Virus record (IMG/VR): IMGVR_UViG_3300037246_001354
Location: 1 to 40,674 of that record
Reading direction: 5' to 3' (one strand)
DNA length: 40,674 bases
DNA from: a virus
Position 1 is the stretch's first letter. Each line of letters opens with the position of its first letter. The notes under the pieces were generated by a model that saw only the letters and a program-made list of their open reading frames with translations, did no database searches and was not told the origin of the DNA. A program made the position numbers and the translations under genes. Shown here in pieces: positions 4,015 through 4,206 of the stretch.

Positions 4015-4206
4015 TTAATATACTCCTTGGTGGTCTCCTTGGTGGTCACCTTTCTGTTCAATTTTAGGTTGATATTTATTTCTTAGATTTTCTCTATAAT
4101 CTAAGAAATTTGGTATCACAATTGCTGCTAATATAGCAATTATAGCAATTACAATCATTAATTCAATCAACGTAAACGCTTTTGTATTTTTTATCCATTT
4201 TACCAT
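4015..4206 (-). CDS. type IV pilin / pseudopilin-like small protein (63 aa)
   Basis: N-terminus MVKWIKNTKAFTLIELMIVIAIIAILAAIVIPNF is a near-textbook class III (prepilin) signal plus hydrophobic helix, FTLIELMIV..AILAAIAIP. Position -1 is Ala rather than the canonical Gly. Confidence 0.5.
   Translation of the reverse strand: MVKWIKNTKAFTLIELMIVIAIIAILAAIVIPNFLDYRENLRNKYQPKIEQKGDHQGDHQGVY

Follow-up and report, generated by a model that had tools for sequence, protein, structure and literature searches.

The stretch of DNA analysed here, called the window throughout, comprises positions 1 to 40,674 of the record IMGVR_UViG_3300037246_001354 of an uncultured virus. The element in question is a minus-strand open reading frame (ORF) at 4015..4206, which starts with ATG, stops with TAA at 4015-4017 and encodes a product of 63 amino acids (aa), MVKWIKNTKAFTLIELMIVIAIIAILAAIVIPNFLDYRENLRNKYQPKIEQKGDHQGDHQGVY; it is referred to as the mini-pilin. 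Judged from its sequence, the product is a ‘headless’ mimic of a type IVa pilin with a class III signal peptide, and the gene is a genuine accessory gene of the phage. The parts of the gene, and the elements overlapping its two ends, are as follows.

4015..4206, minus strand: mini-pilin gene, 63 codons and stop, prepilin-like, no head domain; recognised by the ORF itself, matches to PF07963 and TIGR02532, a conserved family and purifying selection
4177..4206, minus strand: leader peptide, codons 1-10 (MVKWIKNTKA), with Ala at -1 as its last residue; 9 of 10 positions invariant in an alignment of 12 sequences
4105..4176, minus strand: alpha1-N hydrophobic helix, codons 11-34 (FTLIELMIVIAIIAILAAIVIPNF), with Phe+1, Glu+5 and Pro+22; recognised by identity to Myxococcus xanthus PilA (8tj2), by the ratio of nonsynonymous to synonymous divergence (dN/dS) and by the predicted local distance difference test (pLDDT)
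4018..4104, minus strand: tail, polar and charged, codons 35-63, differing among family members in both length and sequence; from alignments with indels and from AlphaFold2
4200..4206, minus strand: ATGGTAA, in which the mini-pilin start overlaps the stop of the upstream 250-aa gene; read at every family locus
4009..4028, minus strand: translation-initiation region of the SbcC-like gene, AAGGAG at 4023-4028 and CGGGGG at 4009-4014; from nucleotide conservation in 12 loci
4024..4047, no strand assigned: perfect 12-nucleotide tandem duplication in the tail (GACCACCAAGGA twice, as read on the minus strand); read from the sequence

The resemblance to pilins is not due to chance, because the scores against Pfam N_methyl PF07963 (36.2 bits, E 3.8e-9; gathering cut-off 21.2) and TIGR02532 (32.3 bits; cut-off 16.3) exceed the curated cut-offs, and a profile of the family finds solved pilin structures at E 2.7e-14 to 1e-8. 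An earlier, sequence-only reading of this DNA had quoted a pilin-like peptide, which is present letter for letter in the ORF. The basic 10-aa leader MVKWIKNTKA is followed by FTLIE; in mature numbering the landmarks are Phe+1, Glu+5, Pro+22 (Pro32 of the full ORF) and Asn+23. The alpha1-N segment is identical to that of M. xanthus PilA (8tj2) at 21 of 24 residues. In a six-frame scan of the whole window, 4015..4206 was the sole motif of the prepilin type.

Cleavage is predicted after Ala10, leaving a mature protein of 53 aa, about 24 of them in the hydrophobic alpha1-N and about 29 in the polar tail; the figure of about 35 aa given in the sequence-only reading was too low. With the family alignment as input, AlphaFold2 predicts one helix over residues 2-45 and a disordered tail after it: pLDDT is 90-94 over residues 11-30 and below 50 in the tail, with disorder from about residue 46. 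The sequence contains no cysteine and the model no head domain; full-length pilin and pseudopilin equivalog models of NCBIfam all score far under the thresholds set for them, as with 43 for a cut-off of 400 and 29 for one of 89. A Foldseek search of the model against the PDB gave 0 matches, an uninformative result for a lone helix. The 63-aa length and the helix-plus-tail model support a pilin-derived protein that has no globular domain.

Family and selection

A word-indexed search gave 11 homologues that are full-length (60-71 aa, 51-65% identity); with contig look-ups and scans of collections the family grew to about 20 loci, among which at least 14 sequences are distinct. All are metagenomic. 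Throughout the family a leader of the form MVKWI(K/R)NTKA and the helix are followed by a variable polar middle with indels and an end of the form ‘..HQG(V/I/D)Y’. In the alignment of 12 members Ala-1, Glu+5, Pro+22 and Asn+23 are invariant; Phe+1 is nearly so (Tyr in one). The family is a narrow one: in an exhaustive search of representatives clustered at 50% identity it amounts to one representative (3e-30), and in the other entries among the 129,418 matches similarity is confined to the generic pilin N-terminus.

A codon alignment of the 12 genes gave the following values of dN/dS and of synonymous divergence (dS).

Leader, codons 1-10: dN/dS 0.065, dS 0.38; over codons 4-10, dN/dS 0.035 and dS 0.51
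Helix, codons 11-34: dN/dS 0.09, dS 1.67 (saturating)
Tail, codons 35-57: dN/dS 0.40, dS 1.34
Last six codons, 58-63: dN/dS 0.47, dS 0.40

The mini-pilin is a real protein-coding gene in which selection preserves the pilin helix, because the helix is under purifying selection (dN/dS 0.09) despite saturating synonymous divergence. The helix is kept in all family members; homologues lacking it, which the sequence-only reading had named as evidence that would count against it, were not found in the family. The low dS at both ends of the gene indicates constraint at the nucleotide level there.

One might instead suppose that the ORF is spurious or decaying, a piece of a pilin gene that was captured from a host and has no function. 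The ORF is absent from the protein collection of its own contig, though its neighbour is present; an intact mini-pilin at 1674..1859 of a second locus (L186) was likewise passed over by the source annotation; and the closest relative of the window phage has no such gene. But at least 14 distinct intact sequences in about 20 loci keep start, frame and stop, at dS of about 1.3-1.7 with a helix dN/dS of 0.09, and the selection analysis effectively refutes this account. It is likely that gene callers often miss short pilin-like genes, which are then under-counted in viral catalogues.

Both ends of the gene are shared with neighbours. At the start, the ATGGTAA overlap suggests translational coupling to the upstream 250-aa gene, here called tm250. 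At the other end, the SbcC-like gene begins 7 nucleotides past the mini-pilin stop, in the window and at most loci. The codons for QGVY and stop (CAAGGAGTATATTAA), together with CGGGGG, form a conserved initiation region for SbcC that lies inside and just past the last mini-pilin codons. A relative without a mini-pilin (L182) keeps ATGGTAA followed directly by CAGGAGAGTATTAACGGGGGATG at the same position. The conservation of the C-terminal ‘HQGVY’ is therefore largely that of the ribosome-binding site of the downstream SbcC gene, because its nucleotides are conserved in 12 loci, its dS is 0.40, and it is retained in L182 in the absence of the mini-pilin; a functional peptide motif was considered on the same evidence and rejected. 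The duplication at 4024..4047 gives the tail its ‘DHQGDHQG’ and places a second AAGGAG upstream of SbcC; it is found in the window only and not in other members of the family.

The accessory insertion and its phage

The mini-pilin lies at one edge of a group of genes inserted between those for the two subunits of a recombination nuclease. The neighbours are these.

1828..4008, minus strand: SbcC/gp46-like recombination nuclease subunit (phrog_77 2.4e-82; Pfam SMC_N)
4200..4952, minus strand: tm250, a 250-aa bitopic membrane protein and candidate partner, preceding the mini-pilin wherever the contig of a family locus is long enough
5013..7544, minus strand: major-vault-protein (MVP)-like protein, 843 aa (PF11978 MVP_shoulder 1.3e-26; weak Vault_3 and Band_7)
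7566..8264, minus strand: lipoprotein-like protein, 232 aa, with a signal peptide ending in LSVMGC (lipobox); homologues in loci L007 and L182, no family match
9823..10860, minus strand: SbcD/gp47-like nuclease subunit, the other edge of the accessory insertion (phrog_100 2.6e-64)

The attribution of the mini-pilin to a phage holds good, since its neighbours include genes for a gp5-like hub/lysozyme, a gp6-like wedge protein, SbcD/gp47, SbcC/gp46 and a gp55-like sigma factor; relatives of the window phage additionally carry a UvsX/RecA-like gene. Gene content identifies the phage as a very distant T4-like myovirus, and one that looks virulent. The window has a GC content of 35.8% and contains no tRNA genes. 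A megablast of 25 kilobases (kb) against INPHARED gave no match, and the best INPHARED match of the window SbcC is gp46 of Aeromonas phage 65, at 24% identity. A tblastn search of the mini-pilin ORF against INPHARED found nothing even at E=10, low-complexity masking being probably responsible; the N-terminus of PAK PilA, used as a query against the same collection, found bacterial-like records only.

Gene order is constant in the family: a tm250 homologue (226-286 aa, bitopic), then the mini-pilin, then SbcC. In tm250 a transmembrane helix at about residues 146-166 is preceded by a basic run, and the N-terminus is inferred to be cytoplasmic. Its family has 13 members only and evolves much faster than the neighbours (35-51% identity), with conserved W/D/E motifs near the N-terminus and a C-terminal DDRYGSxEDKW. 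The AlphaFold2 model is all-helical and of low confidence (pLDDT 58.6), with no fold to search. The JGI name ‘gas vesicle protein’ for tm250 looks spurious. PADLOC, Pfam and PHROGs returned nothing meaningful for tm250 or the lipoprotein-like protein, nor did PADLOC for the mini-pilin. Identity of the MVP-like protein to its counterparts is 75% at related phage loci and 41-43% in LR756500/501/503, which are huge uncultured phages; the one report of viral MVPs is a preprint on gut phages (bioRxiv, 2023). At 4980..5007, in the gap that separates the MVP-like gene from tm250, a perfect 11-bp stem encloses a 6-nucleotide loop; this hairpin may be a terminator, an attenuator or a processing site, and may divide transcription units. 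Elsewhere in the window, among large unannotated ORFs and between the wedge-like gene and other structural genes, 26179..30240 (minus strand) encodes 1353 aa with a lactonase-type seven-bladed beta-propeller (PF10282 7.5e-10), a candidate receptor-binding or tail-fibre protein.

The insertion consists of the lipoprotein-like gene, the MVP-like gene, tm250 and the mini-pilin, and its contents differ among relatives. The closest of these, L182-L184 (L182 is PVMK01000088.1), are 90% identical in SbcC, 95% in the sigma factor and 85% in a radical-SAM protein; they keep the lipoprotein-like gene and tm250, and lack both the MVP-like gene and the mini-pilin. The two absences are separate, clean deletions in L182 (10600..10740 and 9940..10040) with tm250 between them, and the SbcC ribosome-binding region is left at the mini-pilin junction. 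Neither the mini-pilin nor the MVP-like gene is missing from more distant loci (L001, L007 and L185, with SbcC at about 62%). Still more distant ones (L188/L189; SbcC 35% identical) have none of the four, and between SbcD and SbcC they carry only genes for an epimerase and a metallopeptidase, along with small ORFs of 98 and 77 aa. For this distribution parsimony favours a pair of deletions in the L182 line. The mini-pilin is thus dispensable within the phage lineage, because the closest relative is without it through a clean deletion; dispensability is as expected for a function in host interaction or competition. An obligatory pairing of MVP and pilin was considered and set aside, since no pilin-like ORF lies within 12 kb of the MVP homologues of huge phages.

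Host type IV filaments as the candidate target

One way to understand the mini-pilin is to take its likeness to pilins at face value: from its sequence features, it probably acts on a type IV filament system of the host. It would insert in the inner membrane of the host, N-terminus on the cytoplasmic side and tail on the periplasmic side, and would be recognised by the prepilin peptidase of the host; the host enzyme is proposed because no polytopic membrane protein, a candidate phage peptidase, is encoded among the window proteins. It would then join the pool of pilins in the inner membrane, and alpha1-N would engage the filament machinery. Fewer or defective pili on infected cells would be the most likely outcome, because the head domain, which stabilises contacts between subunits and bears receptor epitopes, is missing. 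The gain for a lytic phage would be removal of the receptor or exclusion of superinfecting phages, as with T4 Imm/Sp and T5 Llp. A headless mimic serving in this way as a dominant-negative poison subunit is, tentatively, the best explanation overall for what the sequence displays. Poisoning as the specific mechanism, once action on host filaments is granted, is more doubtful, the remainder being divided between a decoy for PilD or PilS and harmless incorporation.

The company the gene keeps supports a role at the host envelope: the lipoprotein-like protein, tm250 and the mini-pilin share the insertion, and the first 36 kb encode no further membrane or envelope protein. No T4-type late-promoter motif was found near the mini-pilin module, and sigma-70-like sites occur there at chance level. 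The absence of late promoters and the location among gp55, gp47 and gp46 fit early or middle expression by analogy with T4 Imm/Sp, a timing suggested by gene position and promoter content only.

The leader offers a different perspective. The sequence-only reading took Ala at -1 as a sign of reduced cleavage, and this does not stand. Ala-1 occurs in 10 of the 109 nearest homologues outside the family (about 9%); the pattern KAFTLIE[LV]M turns up 559 times across bacterial genomes from many phyla, for the most part in pilins of normal length (median 157 aa). In a Pseudomonas clade an Ala-1 pilin of 138 aa directly follows a PilY1/PilC-family adhesin, that is, in the position of pilE; Acinetobacter genomes encode 165-aa pilins with Ala-1. 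By this sequence evidence Ala-1 is a native variant of bona fide bacterial minor pilins, so that impaired processing is not to be assumed. The alpha1-N segment is too widely conserved to indicate a host phylum. What is notable in the phage family is rather the invariance of Ala-1 and the near-invariance of the entire leader, while the remainder of the protein diverges to 51-65% identity.

Such a leader might be explained if the mini-pilin were a decoy and not a poison, remaining unassembled and titrating whatever recognises alpha1-N (its best-conserved part) or the leader itself. One target would be the prepilin peptidase: with the mini-pilin as its slow or competitive substrate, every pilin and pseudopilin would be blocked. 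Another would be the sensor kinase PilS, which would read inner-membrane pilin and switch off pilA transcription; that PilS senses pilin levels in the inner membrane, through PilS-PilR autoregulation, is set out in PMC6058289, which cites Kilmury and Burrows 2016. Yet a residue that is native in minor pilins need not slow cleavage, related mini-pilins of other phages have Gly-1, and the low dS in the leader suggests that the nucleotides themselves are constrained, both by the start of translation and by their overlap with the gene upstream. The decoy is on balance distinctly unlikely.

Precedents bear on the poison subunit and on a further alternative. Prophage-encoded FimU mimics join type IV pili and block phages that bind the pilus tip (Sztanko et al., Cell Rep 2026, PMC12952977). 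In the same study the PilA-like proteins of virulent phages fall into four groups. One of these, found in six Pseudomonas phages, consists of about 60 N-terminal residues; for these fragments the authors propose incorporation without phage-binding sites, or inhibition of assembly, and tested neither (PMC12952977). The poison or inhibitor idea is therefore plausible and already in print for a sister case (PMC12952977). The two cases are alike in being lytic-phage genes for the N-terminal segment of a pilin only, open to the same two hypotheses. The window family differs in coming from an uncultured T4-like phage, known only from metagenomic and IMG/VR contigs, and in its invariant Ala-1, conserved leader and fixed context (tm250, mini-pilin, SbcC); the truncated PilA was likened to it by description only. 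The P-FimU protein of F10-like Pseudomonas phages is likewise a phage-encoded member of the type IV pilin family, one that uses host machinery and alters phage susceptibility (PMC12952977); it is a full-length, functional minor pilin with extra loops, expressed from a prophage, whereas the mini-pilin is headless and belongs to a virulent-looking phage.

From these precedents one could suppose camouflage, in which the mini-pilin is built into working pili, as P-FimU is, or into headless filaments, as Geobacter PilA-N is, and so alters the pilus surface; incorporation is what Sztanko et al. name first (PMC12952977). The mini-pilin does have a likeness to geopilin domain 1/PilA-N (9egp, 7tgg, 2m7g/6vk9), a naturally short type IVa pilin of about 60 aa when mature, with a similar leader, MLQKLRNKKG before FTLIEL. 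Short geopilin chains are among the best structure matches of the family profile, with 9egp_A first at E 2.7e-14 against 6.1e-13 for M. xanthus PilA; this edge comes from a leader that most PDB chains lack, and the match is weak beyond alpha1-N. PilA-N is, moreover, bacterial, has Gly-1 and forms a heterodimer with PilA-C. Filaments of PilA-N require this partner, which is encoded next to it. No PilA-C gene adjoins the mini-pilin, which has SbcC downstream and the unrelated, bitopic tm250 upstream, and a disordered polar tail of 29 aa cannot stand in for contacts between heads. Camouflage is accordingly improbable.

Other exclusion proteins resemble the proposed poison subunit in outcome and not in means. 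T4 Imm/Sp and T5 Llp are early exclusion proteins; like Tip, Aqs1 and PfsE, phage inhibitors of type IV pili, they offer a parallel to disabling a surface receptor from within, and several of the group are small membrane proteins. None is related to the mini-pilin in sequence or structure: they bind PilB, PilC or other targets and do not mimic a pilin.

Short pilin-like genes beside SbcD and SbcC

Short pilin-like genes are not confined to this family. Six PHROGs families have the same N-terminus (phrog_27437, 11263, 11596, 10597, 13280 and phrog_3433, the last annotated ‘pilin’ and the others ‘unknown function’); three of the profiles are short (59-72 positions), the matches span only the N-terminal 30 residues or so, and the window family is no full-length member of any. 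Among the top 147 representatives outside the family, 29 are of 80 aa or less, some of them fragments and others genuine mini-pilins with tails rich in E, Q and K. IMG/VR holds at least 285 pilin-like relatives, mostly full-length (median 173 aa) and a few of 54-79 aa. One other short gene, at 6001..6162 of JAEHCK010000162.1 (L015), encodes a 53-aa mini-pilin that reads MKWLRTTKA before FTLIELM, on an 8.9-kb contig of small overlapping ORFs; the contig looks viral, and its assignment to the metagenome-assembled genome of a Thermoplasmata archaeon is probably mis-binning.

Divergent mini-pilins of 66-83 aa, with Gly-1 and polar tails, stand beside SbcD/SbcC in the unrelated contigs L190 (980-4233), L192 (941-1737), L204 (6001-9133) and L233 and L248 (about 5977-9415). 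The SbcC proteins of these loci are only 21-27% identical to that of the window, and short pilin-like genes adjoin SbcD/SbcC in at least five very divergent lineages of uncultured phages. In a search for a cultured phage with a mini-pilin by SbcD, the best matches of the L233 SbcC were only about 24% identical (SPO1-like and other phages), and the search yielded no tractable cultured example. In the IMG/VR sample, SbcC or SbcD occurs in the flanks of 3 of 6 short pilin-like loci as against 1 of 76 long ones (Fisher p about 9e-4; about 6e-3 after dereplication). The one long locus with SbcC, L214 (IMGVR_UViG_3300025267_001307), is a viral contig whose gene at 4554..4979 is full-length and PilA-like, with 141 aa and C-terminal cysteines; its SbcC lies 3.8 kb away and is 30% identical to that of the window. 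In the L214 gene the mini-pilins may have their full-length counterpart, or a precursor. The linkage to SbcD/SbcC may reflect inherited synteny or a functional tie.

This linkage brings in another perspective, in which the mini-pilin is a pilin-derived membrane anchor internal to the phage and unrelated to host pili, working with tm250, the MVP-like protein or SbcCD, for example as a membrane tether for replication or recombination complexes, or in lysis timing or a holin-like role. It would account for the putative translational coupling to tm250 at all loci, for the loss of the mini-pilin together with the MVP-like gene, and for the recurrence beside SbcD/SbcC in divergent lineages; small size, a single transmembrane helix and a charged tail superficially fit the criteria for a holin. 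But a plain anchor needs no conserved prepilin signature (Phe+1 in all members but one, Glu+5, Pro+22 and a small residue at the end of the leader). Moreover, tm250 persists without the mini-pilin in L182; the huge phages with MVP homologues show no pilin-like gene nearby; no endolysin gene is adjacent, and the gene is dispensable, unlike a sole holin. A phage-internal anchor is thus unlikely. A bolder version would see in mini-pilins a phage module of long standing, linked in function to the SbcCD (gp46/47) nuclease, and not a means of masking receptors: they may be membrane tethers derived from pilins, or may hijack a competence or type IV pilus DNA route of the host, coupling DNA processing to the inner membrane, and in the window lineage the mini-pilin might also work with the co-lost vault-protein-like shell. 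As a general account this is very improbable.

The poison subunit remains the preferred explanation, but three observations weigh against it. Receptor masking does not predict that several divergent mini-pilins should adjoin SbcD/SbcC; loss along with the MVP-like gene hints at a different, phage-internal module; and an almost invariant leader is unusual for a peptide that is merely cleaved off, although its low dS places part of the constraint at the level of mRNA.

Set beside the published Pseudomonas-phage fragments, what is new is the fixed gene context of the family, the account of its C-terminal conservation, its dispensability and the recurrent linkage to SbcCD. Type IV pili are among the commonest phage receptors, and drive motility, adhesion and DNA uptake. 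If the interpretation is true, the type IV pilus machinery would have in this headless pilin of a lytic phage an inhibitor or decoy that is minimal and genetically encoded. The mini-pilin, with 53 residues and about 88% identity to model-organism pilins in the key part, could be tested directly in Myxococcus or Pseudomonas; possible uses are as a probe or as an anti-virulence lead. The survey further suggests that mini-pilins occur more widely among uncultured phages than one would gather from the literature, with its single Pseudomonas-phage family.

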